The notes: generated by a model not told the origin, from the sequence alone. Numbered from the stretch's first letter, positions 539 to 49,767 are shown. The stretch is DNA of 64,000 nucleotides from Candidatus Fervidifonticultor sextus (GCA_031459875.1 JAVKHQ010000001.1:160001-224000), one strand, 5' to 3'. Numbers and translations are program-made.

Positions 539-564
539 GTACCCCGGCGGATCCAGCGGTAGAC
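539..564 (-). promoter_or_regulatory. putative SigB/SigF-type promoter GTCTAC-N14-GGGTAC
   Basis: Matches the bipartite motif that recurs across this locus; lies about 40 nt upstream of the methyltransferase ATG. Confidence 0.55.
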
Positions 565-595
565 TGGCGGCGCGCAGGGGTAGACCGGCGGCGGT

Positions 596-1747
596 TCACC
601 ATCCCAGTTCGCGCACCCAGTAGGTCCCCAACGCATTCATGGCGATGCCGGCCGCCAGCAGGGCCAGGTCCACGGTCCGCGGAGCCGGGCCCAGGGCAGA
701 TGCCAGCATGACCAGCAGGAAAGCCCACCAGTCCAGACTGTAGCGGTACCCGAACTGCACCCACCCCACCGAGAAGTAGGGGAGCATCGGGATTGCCAGG
801 CTGGCGACCAGCACCGCCCAGGGCCACCAGGCCCGCCGATCCCCCTGGGGGAAGAGCAGCCGCACGATCACAGGGCTGGTGAAGACAAGGGACATTCCCC
901 ACGGCGACGGCCTGAGGAACGGCGGGCGGTCGACAAGTTCGGGCGCCCGGAAGAGCATCGCGTACAGGTGCTCGGGCACAAACCGCAGATGGAAGAAGCC
1001 CCAGCGCGCCGCGGCCTCGGCGTTGGGGGCCCCCATGGACAGCAGCGGGTAGCCGGACTGGAGGGGGTCGCCGAACCGCAGGTAATTGTAGGTCAGGTAG
1101 ACGAGGACCCCAACGCCGTTGGCGGCCAGGAACGTCAGGACCGGGCGGGCCCGCCGGTGGCGCCGCCAGACGACGAGGGCCAGCACAGGGACGGCGGGCA
1201 GCATTGACAGGCGGGTGAGCCAGGCTGCGGTGACCAGCGCGCCGAGGGCCAGCGGGCGGGCCCCTCCGGCCAGTTCCCAGACCAGCAGCGCGGTGGCGAG
1301 GACCACGACCTCCTGGGCGAAGAACCACGTGGTGCCGATGGCGGCGGCGGGCCACAGGACGCTCCCAAAGGCCAGTGCCGCCCCGGCAAACCAGCGCACC
1401 GGGGAGCCGAAGCCCAGGCGGCGCAGGCCGGCGACGAAGATTGCAACCGCCGCCGCCGACAGGATCTGCCCCACGCGGCCCTGGTCGGTCCGCTCGCCGT
1501 GCACGGCCACCACGGGCAGTAGGATGACGGCCGGCACCGGCGGAAACGGGGCGTAGACGCGGTCGCCGATGCGGATGACATCGTGGTAGTAGGCCGGCAG
1601 GTTCCGGAGGTCGGTGCGGCCCTCGAGGAACGCCTGGGCCATGTACACGAAGTGGCGGTAGGCCATATTCGTGCGGGGCGTCACCGCGAGGTAGACGGCC
1701 AGGACCACGACGAAGACGACCAGCGGCTCGCCGAGCCGGCGTCTCAT
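596..1747 (-). CDS. GT-C-like polytopic membrane glycosyltransferase (paralog of 2579-3763)
   Basis: Multi-TM protein from ATG 1747; motifs AQAFLEGRxDL, YAPFPP, NYLRFGDP, GWVQFGYRY. Confidence 0.7.
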   Translation of the reverse strand: MRRRLGEPLVVFVVVLAVYLAVTPRTNMAYRHFVYMAQAFLEGRTDLRNLPAYYHDVIRIGDRVYAPFPPVPAVILLPVVAVHGERTDQGRVGQILSAAAVAIFVAGLRRLGFGSPVRWFAGAALAFGSVLWPAAAIGTTWFFAQEVVVLATALLVWELAGGARPLALGALVTAAWLTRLSMLPAVPVLALVVWRRHRRARPVLTFLAANGVGVLVYLTYNYLRFGDPLQSGYPLLSMGAPNAEAAARWGFFHLRFVPEHLYAMLFRAPELVDRPPFLRPSPWGMSLVFTSPVIVRLLFPQGDRRAWWPWAVLVASLAIPMLPYFSVGWVQFGYRYSLDWWAFLLVMLASALGPAPRTVDLALLAAGIAMNALGTYWVRELGW

Positions 1748-1769
1748 CCCGCCCGCCCCGGGGGGCGTG

Positions 1770-1795
1770 GTCTGGCCGCCCGTCCAGTTGGGTAC
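1770..1795 (+). promoter_or_regulatory. putative SigB/SigF-type promoter GTCTGG-N14-GGGTAC
   Basis: Motif match 12 nt upstream of the GT2 ATG at 1808. Confidence 0.55.
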
Positions 1796-1807
1796 CAGGT
1801 CACCAGG

Positions 1808-13779: not shown

Positions 13780-14196
13780 CTACGGCACCAGTGTCAGCGC
13801 ACCGACAAACGACGGGCGGTACAGGGCGAAATCCCGCCGGTCGTAGGTGAACACCGTCTTGATCCGGTGGCGCTCGCAGAGGGCCAGGCTCACGCAGTCG
13901 ACGAATCCCAGGTCGGCGTCCAGATACTCGCGGTCGATCTCTCGGGCCTTCGCCAGGGTCTCTCCGGATACCGGAAGGACATCAAAGACCCCTCGAATCA
14001 CGTCATCCCACAGAGCCCGGGCGGCGTCCGGGCCGAGCCGGCCCTCAAGGAAGAGCACGGCCTCAACGAGCACCGGTGTCGGGATGGCCAGGACCTCGCG
14101 TGGCCGGATCCGCCGGAAGTATGACACCGCCTCCCGGTGGTGGTGATCCCTGCGATTGGCCAGGGCATACAGCGCCCCCGTGTCCACAAGGATCAC
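13780..14196 (-). CDS. vapC: PIN-domain toxin (VapC family)
   Basis: ILVDTGALYA...VLVE...GFVDCVS...FTYDRRDF; acidic PIN residues conserved. Confidence 0.9.
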   Translation of the reverse strand: MILVDTGALYALANRRDHHHREAVSYFRRIRPREVLAIPTPVLVEAVLFLEGRLGPDAARALWDDVIRGVFDVLPVSGETLAKAREIDREYLDADLGFVDCVSLALCERHRIKTVFTYDRRDFALYRPSFVGALTLVP

Positions 14197-24328: not shown

Positions 24329-24330
24329 TT

Positions 24331-36190: not shown

Positions 36191-38214
36191 GGTGCGGCCT
36201 CGCGCCAGACCGGACGTACCCCGGCCAGCCCCTGCGTCTGAACTACCTCGAACAACGGCGTGGTCGGGAAGTACGGCGGGGTGAACCCCCGGCTCATCCG
36301 GCGGTCGTACCTGAAGTCGCGACCGTAGCCGGTCAGCGGGTTGCCGGTATTGGGGTCGAACGTGCCGAATGCGCCATAGTACTCCTCGATGATTCCACCG
36401 ATCAAGTGCACGGTCCCGCGCGGGGCGCCGGTGTTGTAGTTCTGCACGTTGACCGAACTGTTGTTGCCGTCGCCCAGATTCCCCGCCATCAGCACGGCGT
36501 GAAGTTCCAGGTCGTTGGGCGCCGAGGCGCTGATCCGGATGTCGTTGCCCGCCGAGTACAGGCCCAACACGTTGAGCGGGTTGTCGTTGGGGTTCGTGAC
36601 TTCCGGTGGGTCTTCGTAGCGCAGGTGGCCCGTAATGTCGATCCGGCCGGAGGCGACGATGGTGGTCTGCTCCTTCTCCTCGAGCGTCCCCGACAGCGAG
36701 AGGATCGTCCCCTGCACGTAGATGATGGTGGCGTTGGCATTGCCGGGGCCCTGCCAGCCCTTCGGCACGCCAGCAAAGGTCCGGGTCTGCGGAGACGGCC
36801 AGGCTGTGTTCGTGACCGTCGTCGTCTGCCCGACCCGATCGACGGTGATGGTGACCGTCTGTGACCCCTGGACCAGGGTATAGACCGCCAGGTTGTTGCT
36901 TGGCCCGCCGAGGCTGAAGGTCAGGCTGTTGAGATTCCCCTCCACGTAGATGCCGCCGGCTAGCGACTCGCCGGCATCCGAGACGCCGTTGCCGTTGCCG
37001 TCGGCGACCGGTACATAGATGCCGTTGGGCACGCTGCTGGTGTTGTCCGGCAGTTCGGGCACGGCCTGGCGGATCTGCAAATTGGTCACCGGCGTGGTGT
37101 CCGCCGGATTGCGTCCGACGGCCACCCCCTGTTGATTGTAAGGGTTGGTCGGCATGGGAATTGCGGCCACGCCCCGTGTGAAGTTGGCCGCCGGATTGTC
37201 GTTGTCGTCGAGCAGGTTCGCTGGGGTGCAGTCGGGCAGCACGGGCGCGTCGCGTCGCACGCTGGCCACAACATTCTCGTTGGCCTGCAGCCGCACCGGG
37301 TTTCCGTTGTTGTTAAACCATGCGTAGGTGCTCACGCTGGTCAGACGGGTGGGCAGGTTGCCTGCCGGATCGCACGGCGTGCCGGCATCAGGGGTGCCGA
37401 ATTTGGGATAGAAGGCGAAGCGGAACTCGCCGTTGGTGTGGACGGGGCCGTCGAAGCTGGTGCGGCTGGTAAACCAGATCGCGCCCCCGGCCGGGGTCAT
37501 GTGGACGTGGGTAAACAGGGCGTACTGCGCGAAGCTCTGCCGGCGAACCTGGACGCTGAAGTCGTGGGAGAGCGTCACGCGGCGCCGGCCCTGCGGGGGC
37601 GTCCGGCCGTCGCTTGTGATCGCATAGGTGTAGTAGAACTCGTAGTGGTCGGGACCGAGTTGCTGGATGTACCGCTGCGGCTGCATCGGATCCGCCGGGT
37701 GGGGGGCCAGGCGCCTCGTGACCGTGACAGTGGCGGCGTAGCTCCCCTGGCCCAGGACATTCGATGGCGGCACGCCCGTGGCCACCTGCAGCTTGCGATG
37801 GGGGGTCGGCAGGCTCCAGTTGACCTCGAAGGTCACCGAGTTCGTTGCCGGCGTGGCGCCCAGGATGAACCGTTGCCCGTCGAGCACCAGGTAGTCGAAC
37901 AGGCCGAAGGAGTTCTGGGCGCTGATATTGCCTCCGGCATACCAAGTCGCCAGCGTCGTGCCGCTGAGGGAAGGATCCACGGTGGCGCGGCCAACGGGAT
38001 CAGCATTCATCAGAACCATCAGCGCCGAGCGGGCGGCATAGGCCCCGCCTTCTGCCGTGTTCAGGCTCTGAGCCCCCGCCAGCCTGGCGGTGCTCAGGGC
38101 GATCTCCTTGCCGCTGAGGTACAGGATGAGGGCGCCGACGATGGAAAGGACGAAGATCGTGGTGAGCACCGACAGCATGGCCAGACCACGCTGGCTTTGG
38201 ATCTGCCTGACCAT
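36187..38214 (-). CDS. large PilX/ComZ-like (DUF4900-type) pilus-tip pilin
   Basis: QRG|LAMLSVL (no Glu5, PilX/GspK type), AEGG; FAQYALFT, FDGPVHTN, GGIIEEYYGAFG, YDRRM, PPYFP. Confidence 0.75.
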   Translation of the reverse strand: MVRQIQSQRGLAMLSVLTTIFVLSIVGALILYLSGKEIALSTARLAGAQSLNTAEGGAYAARSALMVLMNADPVGRATVDPSLSGTTLATWYAGGNISAQNSFGLFDYLVLDGQRFILGATPATNSVTFEVNWSLPTPHRKLQVATGVPPSNVLGQGSYAATVTVTRRLAPHPADPMQPQRYIQQLGPDHYEFYYTYAITSDGRTPPQGRRRVTLSHDFSVQVRRQSFAQYALFTHVHMTPAGGAIWFTSRTSFDGPVHTNGEFRFAFYPKFGTPDAGTPCDPAGNLPTRLTSVSTYAWFNNNGNPVRLQANENVVASVRRDAPVLPDCTPANLLDDNDNPAANFTRGVAAIPMPTNPYNQQGVAVGRNPADTTPVTNLQIRQAVPELPDNTSSVPNGIYVPVADGNGNGVSDAGESLAGGIYVEGNLNSLTFSLGGPSNNLAVYTLVQGSQTVTITVDRVGQTTTVTNTAWPSPQTRTFAGVPKGWQGPGNANATIIYVQGTILSLSGTLEEKEQTTIVASGRIDITGHLRYEDPPEVTNPNDNPLNVLGLYSAGNDIRISASAPNDLELHAVLMAGNLGDGNNSSVNVQNYNTGAPRGTVHLIGGIIEEYYGAFGTFDPNTGNPLTGYGRDFRYDRRMSRGFTPPYFPTTPLFEVVQTQGLAGVRPVWREAAP

Positions 38215-38236
38215 TGCCTCCCTCCTCATCCCCTGG

Positions 38237-38836
38237 CTAGCGGCCGCGGAGTGCTACATCGCCGGCGAAGACGCGGCTGACCCCTCCTGCGGTCGTCGTC
38301 ACCGTGATCCGGATCCGCACGATACTCGCCAGATCCACGGGCGTAGATCCCAGTGAGCTGCCGGCCGCGTCGAAGTACTCCAAAGCCAGACCATCTCCCC
38401 CATCGGGCCTGACGACCAGAGAGGCCAGCGGCGCCGGCGGGCCCGCCGGCAGCGGCCCGCCTGCATCGGGATCCTCCTGCCGGGTGATGGTATCGGTGGC
38501 GGCATCGTAGGCGAAGGTCACGGTGTAGGGGCTGGCGGCGGAGAAGGGTGTGGCCTGCGGAACGAACAGCGTGACCTGCGTCGCGCCGGCGGCCGTGACC
38601 ATCTGGGCCCACCGGATTTCGTCGACGAGCGCGTCCAGGGCGGCGCGGACCTGGGACTGCGTCTGCACGAACTCGTTGGTCACCCTTGCCGACCGGGCAC
38701 CCGTCGCCACAAAGGCGTAGATGCTCCCCAGCGCCAGGGCGAGGAGGCTCATGGCAATGACGAGTTCCAGCAGCGAGACCCCCCGCGTCTCGCAAAGGCG
38801 GGTCGAGAAGGAGGAGATGCTGCGCCTACTGATCAT
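38237..38836 (-). CDS. PilW/PulJ-like minor pilin
   Basis: RG|VSLLELVIAMSLL; EIRWA; VRIRITV. Confidence 0.82.
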   Translation of the reverse strand: MISRRSISSFSTRLCETRGVSLLELVIAMSLLALALGSIYAFVATGARSARVTNEFVQTQSQVRAALDALVDEIRWAQMVTAAGATQVTLFVPQATPFSAASPYTVTFAYDAATDTITRQEDPDAGGPLPAGPPAPLASLVVRPDGGDGLALEYFDAAGSSLGSTPVDLASIVRIRITVTTTAGGVSRVFAGDVALRGR

Positions 38837-39278
38837 CGAGCACCGTCGTCAGACTGACCAGGGGGTCTGTGTCGGGATCGGCCGGACGGTAGACGCGGAC
38901 TGTGGCCGTGGTGATGGTCAAGTTGTCGTCTTGCACGAAGTCCACCGCCACCTGAAACGTGTGCGGAGAGGGGTTCGCGACGCCGCTGTAGGGAAAGGGA
39001 AGCGGCAGGGCGGTGCGGGGCATCGGCCCCGAGTTCACCCACGTGTATGGGTTGGCGCTGGCCCGGATCTGCTCCATGATCTGCAGGGCGATGGTCGTGG
39101 CGGCCGCCCGTTCATTGGCACGGCCGGCGTGCGCCATCCCGACAATGAACGCCTGGAGGATTAACAGGGAGACTGCAGCGAAAAGCGACAGGGCGACGAG
39201 GAGTTCAAGATAGGTGAATCCGGTCCGGTCGCGGGACCCGGGGGACCGCGACCGTCCCGGCTCTTGTGCCGAAGCCAT
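38826..39278 (-). CDS. PilV/PulI-like minor pilin
   Basis: TG|FTYLELLVALSLF; ALQIMEQIRA. Confidence 0.82.
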   Translation of the reverse strand: MASAQEPGRSRSPGSRDRTGFTYLELLVALSLFAAVSLLILQAFIVGMAHAGRANERAAATTIALQIMEQIRASANPYTWVNSGPMPRTALPLPFPYSGVANPSPHTFQVAVDFVQDDNLTITTATVRVYRPADPDTDPLVSLTTVLDDQ

Positions 39279-39383
39279 CCGTTTGAGCCCCCCCCGGGGT
39301 TCACTCCCATCCGGCGTGAGAGGCCCCTGCTCCCATCAGTTGTGAAGACCGCGACACCGGGTCGGCGCGAGCGCCCCGATAGG

Positions 39384-39740
39384 CTACACCAACGCCGCAG
39401 CCAGCTGGCTGTTGCGCCGCATCTCGAGCCGGATGCGCCCCAGGTTGGCCTGCCGCGTCCCGACCACCACCAGCACCGCGTCCGGTCCGGCCGGCCCGAT
39501 GGCCACCGGCCCCTCGTCGAACTCCAAAAGCAGATTCCGCAACATGCCCCGTCCCATCTCCCGGCCCATGGAGTCGGAGGCGGCGATGTTGCTGGCGACG
39601 ATGGCACCGACGGCCTCCAGGTCCACCCCCTCCTCCGATGTGATGCCTTCGACCACGAAGCCGTCCCGGCCCACCACCAGCGCGGCCAGCACGCCGTCGA
39701 TCTTCGAGAGGTCCAACAGCACGTCTTTGAGCTGCGACAT
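39384..39740 (-). CDS. roadblock/LC7 (MglB-like) protein
   Basis: LSKIDGVLAALVVGRDGFVV...ANLGRIRLE. Confidence 0.9.
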   Translation of the reverse strand: MSQLKDVLLDLSKIDGVLAALVVGRDGFVVEGITSEEGVDLEAVGAIVASNIAASDSMGREMGRGMLRNLLLEFDEGPVAIGPAGPDAVLVVVGTRQANLGRIRLEMRRNSQLAAALV

Positions 39741-39782
39741 CTTCGCTCCCTCCATCGGTCGGTTGTCCGGCTCCCGCCTGCG

Positions 39783-40598
39783 CTACGGCCTCCCGGGAGA
39801 TGGGACGCCCATCAGCCCCCGGAGTTTGGCCAGGGCCGAGGCGAGCACGCGTGACACATGCTTCTGGGAGATCCCGATGCGCCTGGCGGCTTCCATCTGG
39901 GTCATGTCCGTGTAGAACAGGTAGTAGAGCACCTTCTTCTGCAGGCTGTTGAGGGATTCCATGGCCTCTGTGAGCATGACGCGGTCTTCGATGGGCAGCT
40001 GGAAGCTGATGTGCGACCGGTGCCGGATCCGCTCCCGGTCCACCCGCAGGTCGCCGTTGTCATCCTCGGTCTCCAGCGAGATGGTGCGCAGCACCTCGCG
40101 CGTCCGGAGGATCTCCAGGAGCCCCTCTTCTTCGATGTTGAGTTCCTGGGAGAGATCCTCGAGCCCCGGGAACCGGCCGGTCTCACTCACGTACTTGCCC
40201 ACCGCCTGCTCGATCTGCGCATTGAGTTTCTGGAGCCAGCGCGGCCTGCGGATCGTGTCGCGCTGATCGCGCAGGTAGTGGCGGATCTCGCCGCGGATGA
40301 GGTAGCTGGCATAGGTGGCGAACTTCGCCCCTTTCGTCGGGTCGAAAGCCGAGATGGCGTTGAGCAGTCCGATGTAGCCCACCTGCACGAGGTCATCGGA
40401 GGGGACGCCGGAGAAGATGAACTCGGCGGCAATGCGCCGGACCAGTGGTGTGCACGCCAGGACGACCCGCTCCCGCGTGGCGGGAGCATGCGTTTCCACG
40501 TACTCGGCCATCAGGGCATCGACGTCGTCATACGCGGGGGTGTCAGGCTGGGTTGGACTCTGCCGTTCCACACGGCGCTGCACAGTGCGGGCACCCAT
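39783..40598 (-). CDS. SigB/SigF/SigG-family RNA polymerase sigma factor
   Basis: DDLVQVGYIGLLNAISAFDP..GAKFATYA..IRGEIRHYLRD; region 4 TQMEAARRIGISQKHVSR. Confidence 0.93.
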   Translation of the reverse strand: MGARTVQRRVERQSPTQPDTPAYDDVDALMAEYVETHAPATRERVVLACTPLVRRIAAEFIFSGVPSDDLVQVGYIGLLNAISAFDPTKGAKFATYASYLIRGEIRHYLRDQRDTIRRPRWLQKLNAQIEQAVGKYVSETGRFPGLEDLSQELNIEEEGLLEILRTREVLRTISLETEDDNGDLRVDRERIRHRSHISFQLPIEDRVMLTEAMESLNSLQKKVLYYLFYTDMTQMEAARRIGISQKHVSRVLASALAKLRGLMGVPSPGRP

Positions 40599-40618
40599 GG
40601 CGCGCCTCCCCTACCACG

Positions 40619-40648
40619 AAAAAACCTCCTGGGGCTGCCCCAAGAGGT
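40619..40648 (-). terminator. intrinsic terminator (riboswitch expression platform)
   Basis: Minus strand ACCTCTTGGGG-CAG-CCCCAGGAGGT followed by TTTTT. Confidence 0.85.
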
Positions 40649-40656
40649 GACGTGTG

Positions 40657-40740
40657 CTCCTTTCGGCAGCCCGGCCGACCACGAACTCGGTCCCGAGGCT
40701 TTGCGCCCCCACCTTACGATGGGTTTGCCTTTTTCGAGGA
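40657..40740 (-). ncRNA. c-di-GMP-I (GEMM) riboswitch upstream of the sigma factor
   Basis: Minus strand AAGGCAAACCCATCGTAAGGTGGGGGCGCAAAGCCTCGGGACC...GGTCGGCCGGGCTGCCGAAAGG. Confidence 0.92.
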
Positions 40741-40826
40741 ACCGTATGCAGTTGTTCTGCCCGACGATCCAGGCCCGTTTATTTTAGACCGCCGAGAACA
40801 TTCCTGCAAGGTCTGCGTCAGATCAC

Positions 40827-40852
40827 GTACCCAAGGGGCCGGCCATTTAGAC
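40827..40852 (-). promoter_or_regulatory. putative SigB/SigF-type (autoregulatory) promoter GTCTAA-N14-GGGTAC
   Basis: Closest match to the B. subtilis SigB consensus GTTTAA-N14-GGGTAT; upstream of the riboswitch and sigma gene. Confidence 0.65.
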
Positions 40853-40872
40853 CTGCCCGGGCCGGTCCGGGA

Positions 40873-41664
40873 CTATCCGGCCGACCGGGCGCCCGTGGGG
40901 GGCCGGGTGCGGCTCACGTAACGGAACGCGAGCTTGCGGCCGACCAGGATCCGGATGACGTCGGCGACCTGCGAGGGGGACAGGCCGACTTCGCGCGCGA
41001 TCTCACCCTCGGTCCGTGATCCGTCGAGGAAATCCAGCACCCGCAACCCGGCGTCGCCGACTGCCGCTCGGATCAGCGCGGCCGCCTCGCCGTCCATGGC
41101 CTGCGACGTGCCCGGTGCGGCCACGAAGCGGGCCTCCGCGGCCGCCGGCACCACAGGCCCGGCGGCGGGTTGCGGCGGCGCGGGTTCGGGCGACTGCGCG
41201 TCCAGGGCGGCGGATGGGCGGACCGGCACCGTCACGGGCCCCGCGAGCAGGACGATCCATCCCGACGCCCGTGACGGCAGCGCCGCCGTCGGGTCGCCGG
41301 CGCGGTCCGGCGCCAGCACCACCGACGGGCGGCCGCCGGCCAGGACCCACGCGGCCGGGGAGCGGCCGAGGACCAGCACGACGCCGCGCGCCTCCTCGGC
41401 TTCGAGCCGGGCCAGCAATCGGTCCAGGCGGACGAAGTCCGTGTGCAGCCCGCCCTGCGCCATCTCCAGCGACGGGAGTTGCGCGGCCAGCCAGGGCGGC
41501 ACTTCCAGGCGCTCCACCTCCACGCCCGGCGGGAGGCCGTCAGGCAGCACCGCGCGGGGGTCCCCGGCGCACCACCCCTGCGGCCCGAAGACTGCGGCAT
41601 GCCTGCGGTCCTGAGCCTCAATGACGAGGGCCAGGCCTCCGGGCCAGGCATAGTGGGAGATCAC
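40873..41664 (-). CDS. hypothetical protein, DUF4388/PATAN-like segment plus C-terminal winged helix
   Basis: HTDFVRLDRLLARL...GVVLV; LDFLDGSRTEGEIAREVGL. Confidence 0.55.
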   Translation of the reverse strand: MISHYAWPGGLALVIEAQDRRHAAVFGPQGWCAGDPRAVLPDGLPPGVEVERLEVPPWLAAQLPSLEMAQGGLHTDFVRLDRLLARLEAEEARGVVLVLGRSPAAWVLAGGRPSVVLAPDRAGDPTAALPSRASGWIVLLAGPVTVPVRPSAALDAQSPEPAPPQPAAGPVVPAAAEARFVAAPGTSQAMDGEAAALIRAAVGDAGLRVLDFLDGSRTEGEIAREVGLSPSQVADVIRILVGRKLAFRYVSRTRPPTGARSAG

Positions 41665-41668
41665 GCCG

Positions 41669-42445
41669 CTAGACCTCCTCCTGCACCTTCTTCTGCCAGA
41701 ACCCGCCGAGGCCGAGCAGGACGAACCCTACCACCCACAGCGCGTTGATCCCGTGCACCTGCGAGTACAGGTCGTACCAGGTCAGCAGCGCGTAGCCCAG
41801 GCTGGCGGCGGCCAGGCAGAGCGCGGCGGCCGTCACGGCCAGCCAGGGATAGGCCGACAGGCCGCCGCGGAACCCGATGGCCGGCACCAGTCCGGCGGGA
41901 ATCAGGAACACCGCCGCCGTGGGGTAGAACGCCGAGAGGAATCTGGACATCAGGCCTGTCGAGCTGACCACGATCGGCTCCAGGATGTAGACGAACCCGA
42001 CAGCCCACCCCGCGACACCGAAGCCGAAAAGCGCCAGGCGGACCGACCGATCGACCATGGGGAGCACCAGCCGGACTTCCAGGGCCAGCGCGGCGGCTAA
42101 CAGGACGTAGAAGGCCACGAAGAATCCGTCCGCGACGGACGGGTAGGGCAGCGCCTTCTGGCCCCACCACTGATCGAAGGCGAAGATGGCGCGGCCGGCC
42201 GTCCACACCAGCGCGGCGGCCGCGCCGGTCGCCCAGACCCTCCGTTCGGGATCGCCGCGCGCGTAGGCACGGGCCGCGGCGGCGCACCCGATCCCCGCCA
42301 GCAACGGGGCGGCCACCTGCAGGACGGTCGCCAGGACGTGGCGGGCCACCCGATCCTGGAGACTCCCGCCTTCGAACCCGTAGGCGTAGGCGACGGCGGC
42401 GATCAGGAAGCCGGCGGCGATCAGCACCGGCCAGCGTCGCGTCAC
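41669..42445 (-). CDS. stand-alone multi-TM membrane protein resembling the membrane sensor domain of signalling proteins
   Basis: RRVW...WTAG...PYPSVADGFFVAFY; about 7-8 TMs; no output domain. Confidence 0.6.
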   Translation of the reverse strand: MTRRWPVLIAAGFLIAAVAYAYGFEGGSLQDRVARHVLATVLQVAAPLLAGIGCAAAARAYARGDPERRVWATGAAAALVWTAGRAIFAFDQWWGQKALPYPSVADGFFVAFYVLLAAALALEVRLVLPMVDRSVRLALFGFGVAGWAVGFVYILEPIVVSSTGLMSRFLSAFYPTAAVFLIPAGLVPAIGFRGGLSAYPWLAVTAAALCLAAASLGYALLTWYDLYSQVHGINALWVVGFVLLGLGGFWQKKVQEEV

Positions 42446-43308
42446 GGTGCGCCTCCACCCGCCGCGCGGTCCTCCTGCACCGAGCGTTCGGCGGCGGCGA
42501 TGGTCCGGTCCATGAAGGCGCGCCCGGCGACGGCCACAATGGGGGCGCAGGCGGCCTCGACGATCGCCCGCCACGCCGATTCCGGCAGGGCGGGGGCCTC
42601 AATCCGGTCGCCGTGCACCCGGCCGCCGTATCCGGCGAGCGCCCTTTCCAGCGCTCCCAGGAACAGGGCCGCCAGCCGCGGCCCGCGGAGTCGCGCCACG
42701 CGCGCCGACACGTCGCTCAGGATGGCGGGCCACGGGTGCGGCGGCGGCTCGGGGATCGCGATCGCGGGAAGATCGCGCTGGACCTCGCCGGCCGCAGTGT
42801 ACGGCACCACCTCTTGCGCGGGCGGGGCCAAGTCCGGGAGCGTCGCGCGCTCGGTGCCCGCAGGTCCGGCCGCGAAGACGGGCGCGGCGGCCGCGGGGCG
42901 GCGCGGCACGAAGAGCCCGTCTGGCGCCACCCCCGGCGGCGCAAACGGGGAGTCCGGGGCCGGCTCGACGTCTGCGGTCGGGTCTGCGGCCTGGGGCAGC
43001 GTGCCGATGTGCACGCTGACCGCCCCGCCCCGCGCCGCGAGGTCCCGGAGGAGGTGGTGGCCCGGCAACACCGGGAGCAGAGCCTCTTCGCCGCCGGCCT
43101 CGAAGTACCAGGTGTCCTGCGGCGACCCGCCCTGGATCCACAGGACGCCCTCCAGGTGGTCGTCGCTGGCATAGACGCCCGCATCAAATCCCCGTGCCGC
43201 CAAGTGGGCCGCGAGGCGGTCGATGTCCACCTCGGCCCCCGGGATGCCGGCGAACAGCGCCGGGCCCGCGCGGATGCGGTCGAAGATCTCCCGACGGGTC
43301 GCCGGCAT
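42442..43308 (-). CDS. hypothetical protein (DUF4388-like N-terminus, Pro/Ala linker)
   Basis: VDIDRLAAHLAARGFDAGV...GVLWIQGG; abuts neighbours on both sides. Confidence 0.55.
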   Translation of the reverse strand: MPATRREIFDRIRAGPALFAGIPGAEVDIDRLAAHLAARGFDAGVYASDDHLEGVLWIQGGSPQDTWYFEAGGEEALLPVLPGHHLLRDLAARGGAVSVHIGTLPQAADPTADVEPAPDSPFAPPGVAPDGLFVPRRPAAAAPVFAAGPAGTERATLPDLAPPAQEVVPYTAAGEVQRDLPAIAIPEPPPHPWPAILSDVSARVARLRGPRLAALFLGALERALAGYGGRVHGDRIEAPALPESAWRAIVEAACAPIVAVAGRAFMDRTIAAAERSVQEDRAAGGGAP

Positions 43309-43309
43309 G

Positions 43310-44278
43310 CTACTTGATCCCGAATTCGCGGTAGTAGCGCAGGGCGCCCGCGTGCATGGTGATGGGCATGCCGCGGCGGGCCGAGGCGGTGGTCACATCG
43401 CGGCCCCGCACGTGCGCCGCGTGCAGGCGGTCGGTGTTCTCCCACAGGGCCCGGGTCAGGGCGTAGATGAGGTCGGGATCCACCTCCTGCCGCGTGACCA
43501 GCATGGCCATGACCGCCAGCGTCTCCACCGGCTCCGTCTGTCCCCGGTAGGTGTTCGCCGGGATCGTCACCCGCGTGTAGTACGGGTACTGCTCCTTGAG
43601 CAGCTCGTAGGCCTCCCTGGGGATGGACAGCAGCTTCACCTCGCGGCTGGCCGCGATGTCCTGGACGGCCGCCGTGGGATGGCCGGCGGTGATGAACGCC
43701 GCGTCCACCACCCCGTCCTTGAGCTGGTCGGCCGCCTCGGCGAAATTCAGGAAGTCGGGCCGCGTGTTGTAGTACCCGACTTCAAAGACCCGCATGATCT
43801 GCCGGGCGTTCACCTCGGTGCCGCTGCCCGGCGCGCCGACGGCGATGCGCCTGCCCTTGAGGTCGGCGATGCTGTGGATGTTCTTGGACCGCAGGGTGAC
43901 GACCTGGATCGTCTCGGGGTAGAGCATGGCCATACCGCGCAGGGAGGCGATGGGGTCCCGCTTGTTCCCGATCCGGTCCATGAACATCTCGATGCCGTTG
44001 AAGGCGTAGTAGGTGATGTCGTTCTGCACGAAGGCCACCTGGACGTCGCCCCGCTGCAGGAGGCGGATGTTGGCCACCGAGGCTCCCGAGGTCTGGGCGG
44101 TGGCCTGGACGTTGGGGACCTTCTGGCTCCACAGTTCTGCGAGCGCAGCCCCCAGCGGGAAGTAGACGCCAGCGGTGCCGCCCGTGGCGATGGCGATGAA
44201 CGTCCGCTGTTGCGCGGCCGCTGGCCACACGCCGACCGCCAGCAGTGCGCCGGTTGCAATCAGGAGCATCCGTCTCAT
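43310..44278 (-). CDS. TAXI-family TRAP solute-binding protein
   Basis: IATGGTAGVYFPLG, TSGASVAN, QND, LYPE, GAPGSGT, HAGALRYY. Confidence 0.93.
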   Translation of the reverse strand: MRRMLLIATGALLAVGVWPAAAQQRTFIAIATGGTAGVYFPLGAALAELWSQKVPNVQATAQTSGASVANIRLLQRGDVQVAFVQNDITYYAFNGIEMFMDRIGNKRDPIASLRGMAMLYPETIQVVTLRSKNIHSIADLKGRRIAVGAPGSGTEVNARQIMRVFEVGYYNTRPDFLNFAEAADQLKDGVVDAAFITAGHPTAAVQDIAASREVKLLSIPREAYELLKEQYPYYTRVTIPANTYRGQTEPVETLAVMAMLVTRQEVDPDLIYALTRALWENTDRLHAAHVRGRDVTTASARRGMPITMHAGALRYYREFGIK

Positions 44279-44323
44279 GACCTTCTCCCTCCCTGGCCCT
44301 CTTGGGCGCCTGTGGTGGTTCGT

Positions 44324-45445
44324 CTACCGTTGCACCAGCTCAAACCGCCCTCCCCGCACCACCGCGACAGCGACCGGCCGGTCCGGCGCGCCCCACCGAT
44401 CGAAGGTGATCTCCCCGGTGGCACCGGGGAACCGGCGCACGCCCTGGAGGGCCGTCCGGATCTGCGCCGGCGTCCGCCCGCCGCGGCGGATGGCAAACGC
44501 CACGACCTTCAGCGCGTCGTAGGCCTGGGCCGCAAAATGGTCGGGCATCTCACCGTACTTGCGGCGGTACTTGCCGACGAACTCCTGCACGCCGGGCAGC
44601 GGTTCGGTGGGCACGAAGGCCGCCGGCAACACGAGCCCCTCGGCCGCGACTCCGGCCCATCGCACCAGATCCTGCGAGTACAGGGCGTCGGAGCCCGCGA
44701 CCACGACGCGGACGCCGCGGGCCTGAAGGGCCTGGAGGATCAGGGCGGCCTCGTCGGGGTAGCCCGCGATGAAGACGGCGTCGGCGCCGTCGGCCACCAC
44801 GCCGTTGGCGTGGCGGGTAAAATCCTCGTCGCCATCCCGATACAGCCGCGTGCCCACGATCTCCCGGGACAACCCTCTGACGCGCTCCGCAAAGGCCCGG
44901 GCGACTAAGGTCCCGTAGTCGTTCGCCTCGTGAATGATGGTGAGGCGGCGGGTACGCCGCCTCCCCACCAGGTAGTCGGCGAGCATCCGGGCCTGCGCCG
45001 GGGCAGGCAGCGACGTGCGGAACACGGACGAGCCTGCATAGGGGATCGTGCCGGTGGCCCCGGGGCTGACGAGGGGGATGCCGGCCCGCTCGGCCATGGG
45101 GGCGACGGCCGTCGCGGTGGCATCGGTCAGCGGTCCCACGATGGCGACCACCCGGCGCTCCAGCATCTGGGCAAAGGCGCGCCCGACCTCCTCGGTGCTC
45201 CCCCGGTCGTCGAGCACCAGGAGCGTGAGGGCCGCTCCGGCGACGCCGCCGCCGGCGTTGATCTCGTCGGCGGCCAGCGTGGCGCCCCGCACAGCCGACC
45301 GCGCCGCGGCGGGCACGCCGCTGGTCAGCGGGGCGAGCACGCCGATGGCGATCGTCTCCCCCGCCCCGATCCGCGATCCGGCGCACCCGGTCAGGAGCGT
45401 ACCAGCGAGCGCCACACCCAACGCGAGGACTCGGTTGCGCGTCAA
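44324..45445 (-). CDS. LivJ-type (branched-chain amino acid/amide) ABC substrate-binding lipoprotein
   Basis: Lipobox LLTGC; IGVLAPLT, AADEINAGGG, NDYG, AAQAYDA, GATGEITFD. Confidence 0.9.
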   Translation of the reverse strand: MTRNRVLALGVALAGTLLTGCAGSRIGAGETIAIGVLAPLTSGVPAAARSAVRGATLAADEINAGGGVAGAALTLLVLDDRGSTEEVGRAFAQMLERRVVAIVGPLTDATATAVAPMAERAGIPLVSPGATGTIPYAGSSVFRTSLPAPAQARMLADYLVGRRRTRRLTIIHEANDYGTLVARAFAERVRGLSREIVGTRLYRDGDEDFTRHANGVVADGADAVFIAGYPDEAALILQALQARGVRVVVAGSDALYSQDLVRWAGVAAEGLVLPAAFVPTEPLPGVQEFVGKYRRKYGEMPDHFAAQAYDALKVVAFAIRRGGRTPAQIRTALQGVRRFPGATGEITFDRWGAPDRPVAVAVVRGGRFELVQR

Positions 45446-45465
45446 CGGTCACCGCCCCACAGAAG

Positions 45466-45497
45466 CAAAAACGCCCTCCGGCCGAAGGCCGAAAGGC
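45466..45497 (-). terminator. intrinsic terminator (riboswitch expression platform)
   Basis: Minus strand GCCTTTCGGC-CTTCG-GCCGGAGGGC followed by GTTTTTG. Confidence 0.8.
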
Positions 45498-45510
45498 AAT
45501 CCGGCTCCAC

Positions 45511-45605
45511 CCCTTCGGCAACCCGGCCGGCCGCGGAGTCGCCGCAGACTCCACGCCCCCGTGGCTTTGCGTCCCCACCTTGCGGCGGGTTTGCCTGTTC
45601 GGAGG
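45511..45605 (-). ncRNA. c-di-GMP-I (GEMM) riboswitch upstream of the substrate-binding-protein operon
   Basis: Minus strand ACAGGCAAACCCGCCGCAAGGTGGGGACGCAAAGCCACGGG...GGCCGGGTTGCCGAAGG. Confidence 0.92.
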
Positions 45606-45624
45606 TCGTCTGCTCCTCCAGTAT

Positions 45625-45650
45625 GTTCCCCGACCCGGCTCCGCCTAGTC
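45625..45650 (-). promoter_or_regulatory. putative SigB/SigF-type promoter GACTAG-N14-GGGAAC
   Basis: Motif match about 20 nt upstream of the aptamer. Confidence 0.55.
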
Positions 45651-45655
45651 CTCCA

Positions 45656-46645
45656 CTAATTCTCCCCGAGGCGGCGGCGGAGTTCCCCAATCTCGCCCGG
45701 GATCGACAGCAACCGGCGGTAGAGGGCCGTCACATTGGCGACGTACCACTGCGTTTCGGCGTAGGGCGGGATGCCCTCGTACCGCTCCACGGCCCCGCGC
45801 CCGGCGTTATAGGCGGCCAGGGCCAGATGCGCGTCCCACCGGAACTGATCCAGGGCGCCCCGCAGGTATCGGATGGTCCCGTAGAGGTTCTGAACCGGAT
45901 CCCACGGATTGACGCCCAGCGCCCTGGCGGTCTGCGGCATCAACTGGCCCAGCCCCATCGCCCCCGCCCGCGAGCGCGCGGTGGGCTGAAAACCTGATTC
46001 GATCACGACGAGGGCGACCACCAGGCGGGGGTCCAGGTTGAACTGCCGGCTGTAGCCGAGCAACGCGTGGGCGATAAGGTCGGCTTCCCGGGCGGCCAGC
46101 CGCGGATTGTACGAGCGGGCGATGAGGTCGTAACTGCGCACGCTGAGCACCCATGCTGCGGCGCGGCCCGGCGAAAGCGCCCTGGTCTGGGCGACCTGCG
46201 CCTCCAGCGGCGCCGGCAGCGGGCCGACGGCCCGCAGGGCCTGTTCGGCCATCTGGCGCACCTCAGGCGACCCGCGGGCCGACAGCGCCTGCCGAAATGC
46301 CGAGGCCGCCTCCTCGGCGCGGCCCGAGCGGGCCAGGAGGTGGCCCTGCCACAGGAGGATCGTCGCCTCATGCGGGGCGAGGTCGGCCGCGCGCGCCACG
46401 GAACGGTGTGCGCGCAGCACGTCGCCGCGGTGGAACTGGACGACGCCCAGCCACAGCCACGCGTAGGGATCGGTCGGCCGCTGGGATGCCGCGAGGGTGA
46501 AGAGGGCCTCCGCGTCACCCAGTCGGCCCTGCGCGAACCTCGCCGCGCCATCGCGCAGGGTGGCCGCATCGGCCCTCGCAGCCAGCAGGAGGGCTCCACA
46601 CAGCCCGGCCACCAGAGCCGCCCCCGGTCGCCGGCGCGCCGTCAC
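45656..46645 (-). CDS. exported TPR-containing lytic transglycosylase (SLT domain)
   Basis: Signal peptide; TPRs; [35 protein letters not shown]. Confidence 0.9.
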
Positions 46646-47001
46646 GTCAGTTCCTCGGCGATCTCGGCCCGGCGACGGCGGATCTGCATGCGGGCCCGGG
46701 CCAGGTTGCCGCCGGCCTCCAGCACGGTGGCCAGGTAGTGGGTCGGTCCCAGGACCACGGCCAGCACGGCCAGGTTGTCGGTGGTCATCGTCAGGTGGTC
46801 CAGGTCGCCGCCGTCCAATTTGCGCAGGCAGTACGCCCCGACCTTGATGAGGGCCGCCAGGTCGGCCGCTGCAGCCTGCAGGTCCTGCGCCCCGCTCTTG
46901 GACACGGCCTCGATCACCTGCCCGTCCAGGCCCAAAAGCGCCACCGCGCGCGTATCTTCCCCGATGAGGTCCTGGAGGATGCCCCGCAGTTTCGTCGTCA
47001 T
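46642..47001 (-). CDS. roadblock/LC7 (MglB-like) protein
   Basis: [12 protein letters not shown]...[10 protein letters not shown]; coupled to the SLT gene. Confidence 0.82.
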
Positions 47002-47105
47002 GCTGGCCACCGGGCAGCCGGGGTATTTCGCCGCCGCCGAGTCGCCTCCTTCGCAAAACAGGAGATGCCCGAGGGAATCGCGTACCAACCGGACGGGACC
47101 GTCCG

Positions 47106-48083
47106 ATGCCGTCTGACGCGGTCGAGCGCATTCGCATGCACCGGCGCATCCTGGGGGCGCGGTGGGTGCAGCACGTGGCCCACATCCCGCGGGCCAGCCC
47201 AATGTGGCGGGATGTGGCGCGGATGGACCGACACATGCTGGCGGGCATGGACGCCCTGGTGGACGCCGCGACGACGGGCCAGGTCGAGGCGTTCGGCGAG
47301 TTCGCCGGCCGGCTGAGCCAGGAGGCCTTCGCCCTCCAGGTACCGCTGGACGAGGTGATCCGCGCCCTGCTCCAGATCAAACCCGTGATTCTGGACTTCC
47401 TGGAAGAGGGGACGGCCGGCCGCCGTCTCGATGTGGAGACCGTGCAGCTCCTCAACCGCCTGATCTCCGTGGGCGTCCTGGAAGCCATCCGCCGGCACGA
47501 GCGTCACCGGGATCGCCGCGCCCTGGCCCTGCAGGAACAGATCGACGAACTGCGCGAGCGCCTGCGCCGTCAGGTCCTCGTCGACCCCGTCACCGGATTG
47601 TTCAACGCCAACTCTTTCGCCGCGGCCGTTCGGCGGGAGGTCCTGCGCAGCCGGCGCTTCGCGCGGACCTTCACCGTCGGGCTCGTGGCCCTGGACCAGG
47701 AGGACGAACTCCGCGAGGCGCTGGGCGAAGACGGCCTGCGGGCCGTCGCGATCCAGCTGGCCGACAGCCTGACCCGCTCCACGCGACAGGTGGACGTTCG
47801 GGCGGCGCTGGGCGGCGGACGGTTCGGCCTGATCCTCCCGGAGACCTCCATTGACGGGGCGTTTGTCCTCGCGGAGCGGCTCCGCCAGGCGATCGAGCGC
47901 AGCGCATTCGCGTTGCCCGATCACCCCTATCCCATGACCCAGACGGTCAGCATCGGTCTGGCCTGCTTCCCGCGGGACGGGGAAGACGACCAGGCGCTGC
48001 TGGCGAGGGCGGAGGAGGCACTGGCCCGGGCGCGGGCAGGCCGGAACACCACGGTCGCCGCGGCCACCGCGCAGGACTTCTAG
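47106..48083 (+). CDS. RsbRD_N-like helical sensor + degenerate GGDEF domain (probable c-di-GMP receptor)
   Basis: DPVTGLFN; active site reads GGGRF; I-site RQVD retained; TVSIG...GRN. Confidence 0.82.
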
Positions 48084-48094
48084 GAGGCCCGTCC

Positions 48095-49711
48095 TCACCG
48101 CTCGCGCCACATCCGCAACTGCACCTCGAACGGCGGCTTGTCCCGCAGGATCCGGAGGAAGACGTCCACCAGCCCCGGGTCCAGCGCCGACCCGGCCATG
48201 GTCCGCAGTTCGGCCATGGCCTCCTCCACGGTTCGACCGCGGCGGTACGGCCGGTCGGAGATCAGCGCGTCGAAGGTGTCGGCGACGCGGATGATCCGGG
48301 CGCCCACCGGAATGGCCGTGCCGGCCAGCCCGTCGGGATACCCGCTGCCATCCCAGGCCTCCTGGTGGGAGCGGACGTAGTCCACCAGTGGCCGGAACGG
48401 GGCCATCTCGCTGAGGATGCTGGCGCCGCGCTCCGGGTGGCGGTTCATCACGGCCCGTTCCTCGTCGGAAAGCGACCCGCGCTTGCGCAGGATGTGTTCC
48501 GGCGTCGAAATCTTCCCGATGTCGTGCAACAGGCTGGCCCACCGGATCCGCTCCACCTCTTCGGCGGGCAGGCCCAGCTCCGCCGCCAGGGCGACGGCCG
48601 CGCTGGCGACGCGCTGCGAGTGACCCCGCGTGTACGGGTCCTTGGCCTCCAGCGCGGCGGCCAGCATGTTGACGGCGCTGAGCTGGAAGTCGGCGGCCCA
48701 CCCCTGCATCCGCGCATCGTAGATGAGCAGGGAGGCCATCTCCGTCAACTGCCTGACGGCGTCCACAGCCTCCTGGCTGAAGAGCCGCACCTCCCGCCTC
48801 CCCAGAAAGAGCGCACCGATGCTGAGGCCCTCGACCCGAAACGGGAGCAGGAGCGCAGAGCCGGCCGCATCGCCGCCGAAGACGCCGACCCACCGCGGGT
48901 CCACCGACGCATCCACGACCGACTGGAGCCGACCCCCATCCAGCGCAGCCTGGAGGACCGCCACCTTGGGCAGCACCTCGCCGCGCGGCCGCTCGCCGCC
49001 TGGCGGGCCGGCGCTGGCCTCCACCACCGGGCGGCCTTCGATGTCCAGCACGATCACCAGGCCGGTGGCGGCGTCGGCCAGCCGCCGCCGCGCACAGGCC
49101 AGGAGGACCTGCGCACGCCTGGGGAGGTCGAGGGGCGCCATGTCCATGAGCGCGGCGCGGATCTCCGCTGCGGTCTCGGCCTGCCGGGTGAGTTGGCGGG
49201 CACCGCGCAGGGCCGCCGCTTCGGCTTCTCCCCGTCGCTGCTCGATCAGGCCTACCAGGACGCCCATAAGCAAAAGCAGCGCCGCCCTCGGCAGCACGGC
49301 CGCGGAGGGCTCCATCCGGAGCGAGGCGGCCACCGAGAAGCCGGTGGCGGCGAGCCAGCCGCCGGCTACGCCCGCGGCCAGCGTGCGCCCGGCGGTCCCC
49401 CAGATCAGCACCGGCACATAGAAGAAGTAGAAGAAACTCGCCAGGCCCCCGGTCTCGTAGACGATGAACGACACGATGGCGAGTTCGAGAACCGTCCCGG
49501 TGTAACTCGCCGCCGGGCGCGGTCCCGTCGACCGCTGGGCCAGCGCGCTCAGCAGACCGGTCGCAAAGAGGAGCACCAGCAGCAGGACGACCGGCGAGAG
49601 GATCGCGGGCCCGGTCGGCGTGCCGATCAGGAGCACCGAGAGGCCGAAGAGCACCGCGAACCCCCGGAGCGACAGCGGCCACCACTCGATGCCACCGCGG
49701 ACGGTCATCAT
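48095..49711 (-). CDS. membrane-anchored GAF + HD-GYP c-di-GMP phosphodiesterase
   Basis: N-terminal TMs, GAF; KDPYTRGHS, LLHDIGK, HPERG, HQEAWDGSGYP, ADTFDA, DRPYR. Confidence 0.9.
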   Translation of the reverse strand: MMTVRGGIEWWPLSLRGFAVLFGLSVLLIGTPTGPAILSPVVLLLVLLFATGLLSALAQRSTGPRPAASYTGTVLELAIVSFIVYETGGLASFFYFFYVPVLIWGTAGRTLAAGVAGGWLAATGFSVAASLRMEPSAAVLPRAALLLLMGVLVGLIEQRRGEAEAAALRGARQLTRQAETAAEIRAALMDMAPLDLPRRAQVLLACARRRLADAATGLVIVLDIEGRPVVEASAGPPGGERPRGEVLPKVAVLQAALDGGRLQSVVDASVDPRWVGVFGGDAAGSALLLPFRVEGLSIGALFLGRREVRLFSQEAVDAVRQLTEMASLLIYDARMQGWAADFQLSAVNMLAAALEAKDPYTRGHSQRVASAAVALAAELGLPAEEVERIRWASLLHDIGKISTPEHILRKRGSLSDEERAVMNRHPERGASILSEMAPFRPLVDYVRSHQEAWDGSGYPDGLAGTAIPVGARIIRVADTFDALISDRPYRRGRTVEEAMAELRTMAGSALDPGLVDVFLRILRDKPPFEVQLRMWRER

Positions 49712-49741
49712 CGTCCTCCGTGGAGGGGAACCGTCTGTTCT

Positions 49742-49767
49742 ATGCCCGCGCCGACAACCGTGCAGAC
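49742..49767 (-). promoter_or_regulatory. putative SigB/SigF-type promoter GTCTGC-N14-GGGCAT
   Basis: Motif match about 30 nt upstream of the HD-GYP start; shares GGGCATAGA context with the pilin 1 promoter. Confidence 0.6.

Follow-up and report, generated by a model that had tools for sequence, protein, structure and literature searches.

Cyclic diguanylate (c-di-GMP) reaches alternative sigma factors by different routes in different bacteria. In Rubrobacter radiotolerans, the complex (RsiG)2-(c-di-GMP)2-WhiG includes a c-di-GMP-sensing protein anti-sigma (PMC8325347). In Clostridioides difficile, the Cd1 riboswitch (Cdi-1-3) is an OFF switch on the flgB operon with sigD, and Cdi-2-4 is an ON switch on pilA1 (PMC6366702). 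The cyanobacterial factors SigF (Synechocystis; PMC2532724, PMC2758279) and SigJ (Nostoc punctiforme; PMC6495340) are SigB-related group 3 sigma factors with a GGG-type -10 box and with pilin and motor targets. Here we describe a type IV pilus locus from Candidatus Fervidifonticultor sextus that works like RsiG-WhiG and Cd1-sigD and shares targets with SigF/SigJ, but is a member of none of these systems. The locus lies in a stretch of 64,000 nucleotides (nt) (GCA_031459875.1 JAVKHQ010000001.1:160001-224000; hereafter the window), which corresponds to C1:160001-224000 of a 3.05-Mb genome that is 96% complete. It encodes a sigma factor of the SigB/F/G-like type, a c-di-GMP-I riboswitch ahead of the sigma gene, and repeated copies of a bipartite promoter-like motif.

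How does this locus compare with the described systems? As for RsiG-WhiG, c-di-GMP is predicted to lower a group 3 sigma factor, and predicted promoters lie in a type IV pilus cluster and before diguanylate cyclase and phosphodiesterase genes. However, RsiG is an anti-sigma of a FliA-type sigma (TAAA/GCCGATAA), whereas here the proposed control is an RNA switch on the synthesis of a SigB/F-like sigma. As in C. difficile, a class I c-di-GMP OFF riboswitch lies on a sigma gene, and ON and OFF switches would partition surface functions. There, sigD is part of a 23-kb flagellar operon and pili are switched on by c-di-GMP; here, the riboswitch lies directly on the leader of the pilus sigma, and ON and OFF class I switches stand behind one promoter type. 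The window sigma differs from SigF/SigJ in occupying a separate tree branch, in not reaching the PRK07408 cut-off, and in having a conserved GWCT -35 box where that of SigJ is weakly conserved; riboswitch control is proposed here, and none is described for SigF/SigJ in the available parts of PMC2532724, PMC2758279 and PMC6495340. Self-regulation may be a feature in common with SigF: here the motif precedes the sigma gene in 14/29 loci and the pilin genes in 29/35, in keeping with direct transcription of both. B. subtilis SigB shares the spacer, the -10 box and similar region 2.4 and 4.2 sequences, but the -35 box here is GWCT, the predicted regulon concerns pili and c-di-GMP rather than general stress, and no RsbV/W/U-type genes were found in this genome. 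A literature search, with most subscription journals outside its scope, found no paper joining a c-di-GMP riboswitch, an Armatimonad and a sigma factor. In the main text of PMC11604079, the main description of the phylum, the words pili, pilus, c-di-GMP, sigma and riboswitch are absent.

The motif is probably the promoter of a pilus-dedicated, SigB/F-like sigma clade in CSP1-3/Sysuimicrobiota, gated by a riboswitch that would act as a graded brake with mixed feedback. The clade would transcribe a genome-wide regulon that includes the major pilins and the glycosyltransferases downstream of them, PilB/PilT/PilC, most minor-pilin sets, PilZ proteins, and domains that make and that degrade c-di-GMP. 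The window sigma would be the c-di-GMP-sensitive input, expressed from a promoter that varies between lineages; c-di-GMP binding would terminate its leader, leaving less of this sigma at high c-di-GMP. Riboswitches behind the common promoter type would split the targets into OFF and ON classes, and the outcome would more plausibly be a graded brake with mixed feedback than a bistable toggle. The motif, its enrichment and conservation, the riboswitch class, the mutually exclusive hairpins and the gene content were read directly from the sequence.

The motif, G(T/A)CT(A/G)N-N14-GGG(C/T/A)A, is real. A preliminary description of the window had placed it at 11 stretches ahead of named genes; all 11 are present at those coordinates in the orientation of the genes, and the gene labels hold on annotation with Pfam and NCBIfam. 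Genes were called with our own codon model, which missed some (e.g., two HD-GYP genes at C3:33.3-35.9 kb, which lack the motif). The scores below come from a held-out matrix, trained only on sites outside the window to avoid circularity.

539-564, minus strand: motif before the methyltransferase gene (17.1 bits)
1770-1795, plus strand: motif before a glycosyltransferase family 2 (GT2) gene (1808-2566), 13 nt from the start codon (13.0 bits)
16674-16699, minus strand: motif before a GT2 gene (15799-16617) (12.7 bits)
21299-21325, minus strand: motif of pilin 2 (20793-21245), spacer one base longer (14.8 bits)
23642-23667, minus strand: motif of pilin 1 (23027-23473) (20.3 bits)
33243-33268, plus strand: motif of pilB2 (13.9 bits; at least 11.9 bits in 12/21 loci)
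33277-33302, minus strand: motif of the dnaB-like/merR-like/DUF6812/pilB/pilT/pilC operon (20.3 bits; 19/21 loci)
40827-40852, minus strand: candidate motif promoter of the sigma gene, read by itself or a paralogue (16.7 bits)
45625-45650, minus strand: motif of the solute-binding-protein operon, which runs toward the sigma gene (18.4 bits)
49742-49767, minus strand: motif of the HD-GYP gene (17.1 bits; 20/20 orthologues with upstream DNA)
47065-47090, minus strand: previously listed weak site before Roadblock-SLT, unsupported

The pattern G[TA]CT-N16-GGG[CTA]A occurs exactly in nine of the 11 sites, and the pilin 2 site has one additional base (N15). The ten core sites are the top ten of the 38 window upstream regions by the held-out matrix (12.7-20.3 bits), with rpsU next at 8.1 bits. 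The eleventh, before Roadblock-SLT, reads GGTTGG-N14-GGGCAT and did not stand: it does not match the pattern, is missed by the matrix and has one weak match in five relatives. The predicted enrichment over background was borne out, with the motif in 9/38 window upstream regions against a shuffle mean of 0.17 (maximum 2 in 500). Across the whole window there are ten pattern matches, one of which (42855-42879) falls within a gene, against 2.91 ± 1.67 in 100 shuffles (largest 8). Outside the window, 24/1578 upstream regions carry the motif (shuffles, 5.6 ± 2.1; maximum 9 in 40), such that the window is enriched over the rest of the genome with a post hoc odds ratio of 20. The spacer is specific: N14 gives 47 genome-wide matches at most 260 nt from a same-strand gene, and eight other spacers give 7-16. 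Outside the window, 41 matrix matches exceed 12 bits, some of them before unrelated genes, and the antisense control gives 21. Among 94 CSP1-3/Sysuimicrobiota genomes (families f1, f3, f4, f5 and f6 among them, with 34 genomes in the organism's own family, f1), a stricter pattern gives 991 matches, compared with 292 for reversed and 257 for wrong-spacer controls; related genomes are not independent, so these totals are descriptive counts. The real count exceeds the wrong-spacer count in 87/94 genomes, and the excess is strongest in f1 and f4. Since most sites are elsewhere in the genome, the earlier term "locus-wide" understates the regulon, even though the window itself is enriched.

Indeed, the regulon appears to be genome- and phylum-wide, taking in pilins, motors, minor-pilin sets, PilZ, HD-GYP and GGDEF genes and 9/11 c-di-GMP-I riboswitches. 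Beyond the window, motif sites stand before a paralogous sigma gene, a second PilT, five more minor-pilin sets or the operons that hold them, two operons with intact GGDEF genes, and four genes that contain or precede HD-GYP domains; two further motif-preceded genes are, we presume, PilZ-like. Conservation upstream of orthologues, counted with the organism's own genome included, is high for most of the targets named earlier and low for one. The HD-GYP gene (20/20), the pilBTC operon (19/21) and the pilins (29/35 genes with full upstream DNA at 13 bits or more, after two truncated and two duplicate rows were dropped) retain the motif, as do the binding-protein operon in 5/5 relatives' loci with upstream DNA, the DUF951-GGDEF operon, with an intact GGDEF domain, in 14/14 loci, and the REC-GGEEF-HD-GYP gene in 8/8. 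By contrast, the GT2 site at 16674-16699 reaches 12 bits in 3/19 orthologues. Dedicated promoters for the glycosylation genes, as first proposed, are therefore disfavored, and these genes would belong to the regulon mainly by lying downstream of pilins.

There are several reasons to suspect that a sigma factor of the SigB/F type reads the motif. First, the motif is bipartite with a fixed spacer, and its -10 box resembles that of B. subtilis SigB. The SigB consensus is RGGXTTRA-N14-GGGTAT, as quoted in PMC2532724, and the Nostoc J-Box also has three Gs, resembling the -10 box here (PMC6495340). Second, sites of at least 13.9 bits lie within 150 nt of nine of the 11 riboswitches in the genome, and in eight of the nine the motif starts 39-57 nt before the aptamer, which would put the expected start site just ahead of the aptamer; the exception is the sigma gene's own motif, 113 nt before its aptamer. 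Together with the held-out matrix and the N14 spacer, these features are consistent with the original proposal of a SigB/F-like promoter before the pilus genes, the sigma gene and the HD-GYP gene. Third, the sigma gene keeps company with pilus genes. It lies directly after pilC in nine Armatimonadota/Eremiobacterota loci and among pilus genes across Sysuimicrobiota, which is independent support for a role in pili. The window sigma scores 181 bits against TIGR02980 (SigB/SigF/SigG; cut-off 234), the best of 61 NCBIfam families, 158 against PRK07408 (cyanobacterial SigF; cut-off 261) and 107 against TIGR02479 (FliA/WhiG type; cut-off 189.6), a type whose promoter motif also differs. Its nearest named records, at 96-99% identity, are from Candidatus Fervidifonticultor and are labelled Ca. 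Sysuimicrobiota (CSP1-3). A quick tree places the window sigma in a 49-row group (support 92) of Sysuimicrobiota, Armatimonadota and Eremiobacterota, separate from the SigB/F-like actinobacterial group and two cyanobacterial (Nodularia) rows. A sequencing run over window positions 39300-46000 gave mostly partial, diverged contigs.

The proposed gating of the sigma factor depends on its leader. Three c-di-GMP-I riboswitches in the window, and 11 in the genome, score above the Rfam gathering threshold.

39783-40598, minus strand: gene of the SigB/F/G-like group 3 sigma factor, 271 amino acids, pilus-linked clade (Pfam r2 and r4)
40781-40809, minus strand: sigma-A-like promoter candidate, TTGCAG-N17-TAAAAT (8 of 12; read by eye)
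40661-40738, minus strand: c-di-GMP-I aptamer before the sigma gene, G20/A47/C92 type (Rfam, 71.6 bits)
40624-40648, minus strand: predicted intrinsic terminator of the sigma leader, OFF design; the aptamer 3' strand can form an antiterminator with its 5' arm and loop
33300-33388, plus strand: c-di-GMP-I aptamer before pilB2 (Rfam, 49.4 bits; aptamer pattern in 11/21 loci)
45513-45604, minus strand: c-di-GMP-I aptamer of the binding-protein operon, OFF design (Rfam, 60.3 bits; terminator 45472-45498)

All 11 aptamers read G20, A47 and C92, with positions numbered by what we take to be the Vc2 landmarks. G20/A47/C92 is the c-di-GMP pattern, and A20 marks c-AMP-GMP (cyclic AMP-GMP) binders (PMC6140456, PMC5888326). 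We therefore rejected c-AMP-GMP specificity for this genome, given G20 in all 11. RF03167 (GGC variant) is the best-scoring model for two of the window aptamers, but neither has that model's G at position 47. Elsewhere in the family, the sigma-leader aptamer has A20, the c-AMP-GMP signature, at L085:1361-1438 and L088:1358-1435 (G033 and G027; genus g12), and the other family loci have G. A conserved ACAA-N-T-N2-ATA element lies just 5' of the sigma aptamer (40745-40755, minus strand) and is shared by most family loci and by some loci of f4/f6.

All 29 f1 loci with upstream DNA have a riboswitch before the sigma gene, and in 5/5 f3, 7/7 f4 and 1/1 f6 loci (three by pattern only) one stands ahead of the gene or its operon. 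The claim that this riboswitch terminates the sigma mRNA is supported in folding models: the antiterminator duplex is better than in shuffles (p≤0.05) in 23/28 leaders, and the antiterminator forms (P>0.5) in 25/28 truncated transcripts. For the binding-protein leader, the terminator probability is 0.20 when free and 1.00 with the aptamer forced, or 0.94 and 1.00 with a longer 5' end. The pilB2 riboswitch is probably OFF-type as well, but is the least certain of the three. The 11 leaders of the genome were folded with hand-set terminators, because automatic picking was wrong for several. Five have an OFF design (three in the window, C7 and C10) and six an ON design (C12 twice, C13, C19, C30 and C51), with a terminator that includes the P1 strand; hence, loss of the terminator with P1 forced holds by construction. 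For the OFF-type leaders, equilibrium folding at full length does not separate ON from OFF. The shuffle duplex test gave no support for the pilB2, C7 or C10 leaders, because the terminator was over-extended in the test. G005 and G007 repeat the ON design ahead of the C13- and C30-type HD-GYP genes; before the C12-type minor pilins, this design is found in G000, G004 and G006 and is unclear in G001. The C51 riboswitch (G000:C51:2440-2514) is followed by two hairpins with a shared repeated arm, and its direction may be less straightforward than plain ON. Throughout, ligand binding and the ON or OFF direction in the cell are predicted from these designs.

Some observations weigh against a riboswitch-gated sigma reading the motif across the phylum. 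The motif excess is weak in f3 (142 vs 67 and 71) and f5 (54 vs 13 and 25), and no riboswitch was found near the sigma gene in 7/7 f5 loci. An unseeded 4+4 word search outside the window did not return the motif among its top 40 word pairs; a sigma-H-like pair is dominant there, with sigma-70-like pairs also present. A sigma match is found in 87/94 phylum genomes, and six of the seven without one still have motif matches, probably reflecting assembly gaps; with the sigma almost universal and the motif present in sigma-less assemblies, presence and absence cannot link the two. The antiterminator has no two-sided covariation (0/8 pairs), a count made uninformative by the nearly invariant aptamer strand; 81% of the alignment cells pair. 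Finally, when the full-length sigma leader is folded to equilibrium, its terminator forms in either state (0.97 and 0.97). The OFF direction therefore rests on co-transcriptional folding: in these models it is well supported but kinetic.

Does the window sigma act alone? The idea that the local sigma is the only reader of the motif has to be widened, because the genome has two riboswitch-free paralogues (C12:5949-6674 and C23:34746-35591), both missing from the preliminary description, and all three proteins share an identical region 4.2 helix. The reader would then be a small family rather than one gene. It is possible, though we lean against it, that these paralogues drive much of the regulon and that the window riboswitch only trims total sigma activity. 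Besides the common helix, the C12 paralogue is 55% identical to the window sigma, the motif lies directly before it here and in 6/6 relatives examined, and at least two sigma matches occur in 23/34 family genomes. The C23-type paralogue lacks the motif. However, genomes with a single match (e.g., G009, G015 and G030) still have a motif excess, and the paralogues are f1 duplications, whereas the link to the riboswitch reaches f3, f4 and f6. Tandem sigma copies are a separate case: in L116 and L117 (f4 genus g23), two copies flank a MerR-like gene with one riboswitch in front.

A second alternative makes an unrecognized protein inhibitor the chief regulator of the sigma, with the riboswitch secondary; candidates include the co-transcribed Roadblock protein and a degenerate GGDEF receptor.

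39384-39740, minus strand: Roadblock/LC7 (MglB-like) gene directly 3' of the sigma gene, an adjacency kept in family loci
47106-48083, plus strand: degenerate GGDEF protein (GGGRF, RxxD present), without the motif and absent from the earlier account

A Roadblock gene lies 3' of the sigma gene in 30/30 family loci and in most f3-f5 loci, f5 keeps sigma-Roadblock without a nearby riboswitch, and a pattern search of the called proteome found no MglA-type GTPase motif. Nevertheless, we judge this alternative unlikely. No Roadblock gene lies beside the sigma gene in L102, L112, L113, L118, L119 or the Armatimonadota loci, and a single-pattern search for RsiG gave one match, in a 437-amino-acid protein, and no RsiG-sized protein. 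In addition, cyanobacterial SigF is described as self-regulated (PMC2532724). As first reported, no anti-sigma gene adjoins the sigma gene in the window, according to the Pfam/NCBIfam annotation of its neighbors. STAS, STAS_2, SpoIIE and small RsbW-like genes were not found in the 96%-complete genome, whose nine HATPase_c_2 matches are all in frames of at least 365 amino acids, and STAS was not found in 5/5 same-genus genomes. STAS is absent from 26/33 other f1 genomes and present in 20/22 f3 and 23/23 f4 genomes. All seven STAS-bearing f1 genomes retain the sigma riboswitch, so the two are not mutually exclusive, and the suggestion that the riboswitch replaces partner switching fails as an either/or statement. 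There are two Roadblock proteins in the window (39384-39740 and 46642-47001). A second degenerate GGDEF protein with RxxD is encoded at G000:C1:151933-152925, in a pilMNO run; both degenerate proteins have an N-terminal domain without assignment and are likely to be c-di-GMP receptors tied to pili.

Could the circuit be bistable? The preliminary description proposed a toggle with two stable states, in which the sigma feeds itself through a self-promoter and also through a phosphodiesterase that lowers c-di-GMP and so yields more sigma. This depends on the following enzyme.

48095-49708, minus strand: membrane GAF-HD-GYP protein, HQE instead of HHE

The self-promoter, the OFF switch and the motif before the HD-GYP gene are all in this genome and are conserved in close relatives. 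No EAL domain was found in the genome, leaving the HD-GYP proteins as the only recognized c-di-GMP degraders. In a toy steady-state model with non-cooperative terms and 8000 random parameter sets, whose arbitrary ranges determine the percentages, the proposed two-loop wiring is bistable in 4.4% of sets and either loop alone in 0; with extra arms the figure is 2.7-3.2%. The model thus allows bistability, provided that both loops operate and leak is low: at a basal input of at least 10% it falls to 0.2%, and it is never seen without the self-promoter or with a dead enzyme. The sequence evidence does not support the toggle, which we regard as improbable. The self-promoter motif is present in 14/29 family loci and 1/20 loci of other families; in the 15 family loci without it, the riboswitch is retained and the promoters are sigma-A-like or sigma-H-like. 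Even here, a second promoter may feed the same leader, since the sigma-A-like candidate, not noted earlier, lies between the motif and the sigma riboswitch; it scores under the sigma-70 scan threshold, and similar elements occur in eight close orthologues and genus g12. The window HD-GYP protein keeps HD, GYP and the RxY[K/R] substrate motif (definitions from 10.1101/2021.11.05.467447), but Gln takes the place of the second HHE His in 20/20 orthologues covering the site; both His residues of the motif are metal ligands. In PmGH, H276A and H277A, the latter at the Gln position, essentially abolished activity (PMC4159591), and the phosphodiesterase activity of the window protein is uncertain. 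An orthologue is matched in f1 only (23/94 genomes) and is missing from its place in L002. Moreover, the motif also precedes the intact GGDEF operon (14/14) and the REC-GGEEF-HD-GYP gene (8/8), and ON-type switches before two other HD-GYP genes would give negative feedback; the one on C30, which keeps HD and HHE, sits behind an ON switch and thus implies a negative loop. A net positive loop through the phosphodiesterase is therefore not upheld, and with mixed positive and negative arms, neither is bistability.

Three further observations concern these enzymes and promoters. The HD-GYP protein behind the other ON-type switch (G000:C13:46009-46602) has HE for HD and may be inactive. In L092-L099 and L101 (genera g3, g4, g5 and g7), a promoter that we take to be sigma-H-like replaces the motif at the sigma leader, and its word pair also ranks first in the unseeded search of the present genome. 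Indirect self-input is possible by read-through from an upstream motif promoter, which belongs to the binding-protein operon here and, in four f3 loci, to the SLT gene.

That the motif is a transcription-factor binding site, for example for the MerR-like protein of the pil operon, is very improbable: a short MerR-like gene does travel with the pilus operon and the sigma gene, and some motif sites lie on the antisense strand of upstream regions, but the motif is bipartite and non-palindromic, its spacer and orientation are strict, its -10 box is SigB-like, and the antisense counts are explainable by divergent gene pairs.

The remaining pilus genes of the window are arranged as follows.

19106-22914, minus strand: PMT_2-type membrane glycosyltransferases, one after each pilin (21352-22914 and 19106-20593; Pfam PF13231)
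26972-33185, minus strand: dnaB-like, merR-like, DUF6812, pilB (tandem MshEN motif), pilT and pilC
33457-35751, plus strand: pilB2 (TPR, MshEN and ATPase; Pfam/NCBIfam)
35759-39278, minus strand: four-gene minor-pilin set downstream of sigma-Roadblock (N_methyl/GspH/DUF4900)

The gene neighborhood suggests pilin glycosylation. The four-gene minor-pilin set has no motif of its own by the matrix, no terminator was found between it and sigma-Roadblock, and the set varies among relatives. The DnaB-like protein (31611-33185), which falls below all DnaB cut-offs, is first in the pilBTC operon, behind the strongest motif site; a second, separate DnaB-like gene is on C56. The pilus cluster extends left of the window (G000:C1:147829-159680), with a minor-pilin set and motif matches at C1:159749 and C1:150263; some of the genes there are presumably pilM/N/O-like, prepilin peptidase-like and PilQ-like. 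Amid the glycosylation/pilin region are toxin-antitoxin-type modules (PIN, DUF433/DUF5615 and nucleotidyltransferase-HEPN) at 13780-14486, 17605-18303, 24331-24669 and 25240-26077. Three coiled-coil genes (16750, 23960 and 26246) also break up the region, and an integrase-core (rve) transposase-like gene lies at 62688-63977.

The ON-switch operons would need both the sigma type and high c-di-GMP, a combination that an OFF-gated sigma could not sustain, which suggests a hand-over to a paralogue. A bolder version of the riboswitch-gated regulon, which we put forward tentatively, is thus that c-di-GMP re-routes one sigma regulon, with paralogue hand-over and ON switches swapping minor-pilin sets. 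At low c-di-GMP, the gated sigma would drive the motors, the pilins, its own downstream minor-pilin set and the riboswitch-free paralogue. As c-di-GMP rises, the paralogue could persist and drive the ON-switch operons, among them two further minor-pilin sets and the feedback HD-GYP genes. Pilus tip complexes would then be swapped by RNA logic, and any memory would reside in the paralogue rather than in a phosphodiesterase loop. The C12 paralogue adjoins the two ON minor-pilin sets and, in G006, lies downstream within the ON operon; the relatives with the motif before it include G010 and G013, in which the gated sigma has no self-promoter. Of two further loci examined, one is a C23-type paralogue that lacks the motif and the other a minor-pilin region. 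Synechocystis likewise has alternative minor-pilin sets with opposite regulation and different pilus jobs (10.1101/2020.12.15.422378), whereas here such opposition is a prediction drawn from riboswitches of ON and OFF design.

What are the implications of this arrangement? First, the analysis provides a promoter consensus and a regulon for the near-universal sigma factor of a widespread uncultured phylum, and every part of the proposal can be tested in vitro without culturing the organism. Second, one promoter type combined with ON and OFF riboswitches is a testable case of choice among many minor-pilin sets. Third, if the proposal is true, it would add a third way for c-di-GMP to act on a pilus sigma, using RNA instead of an anti-sigma and convergent with that of Rubrobacter.

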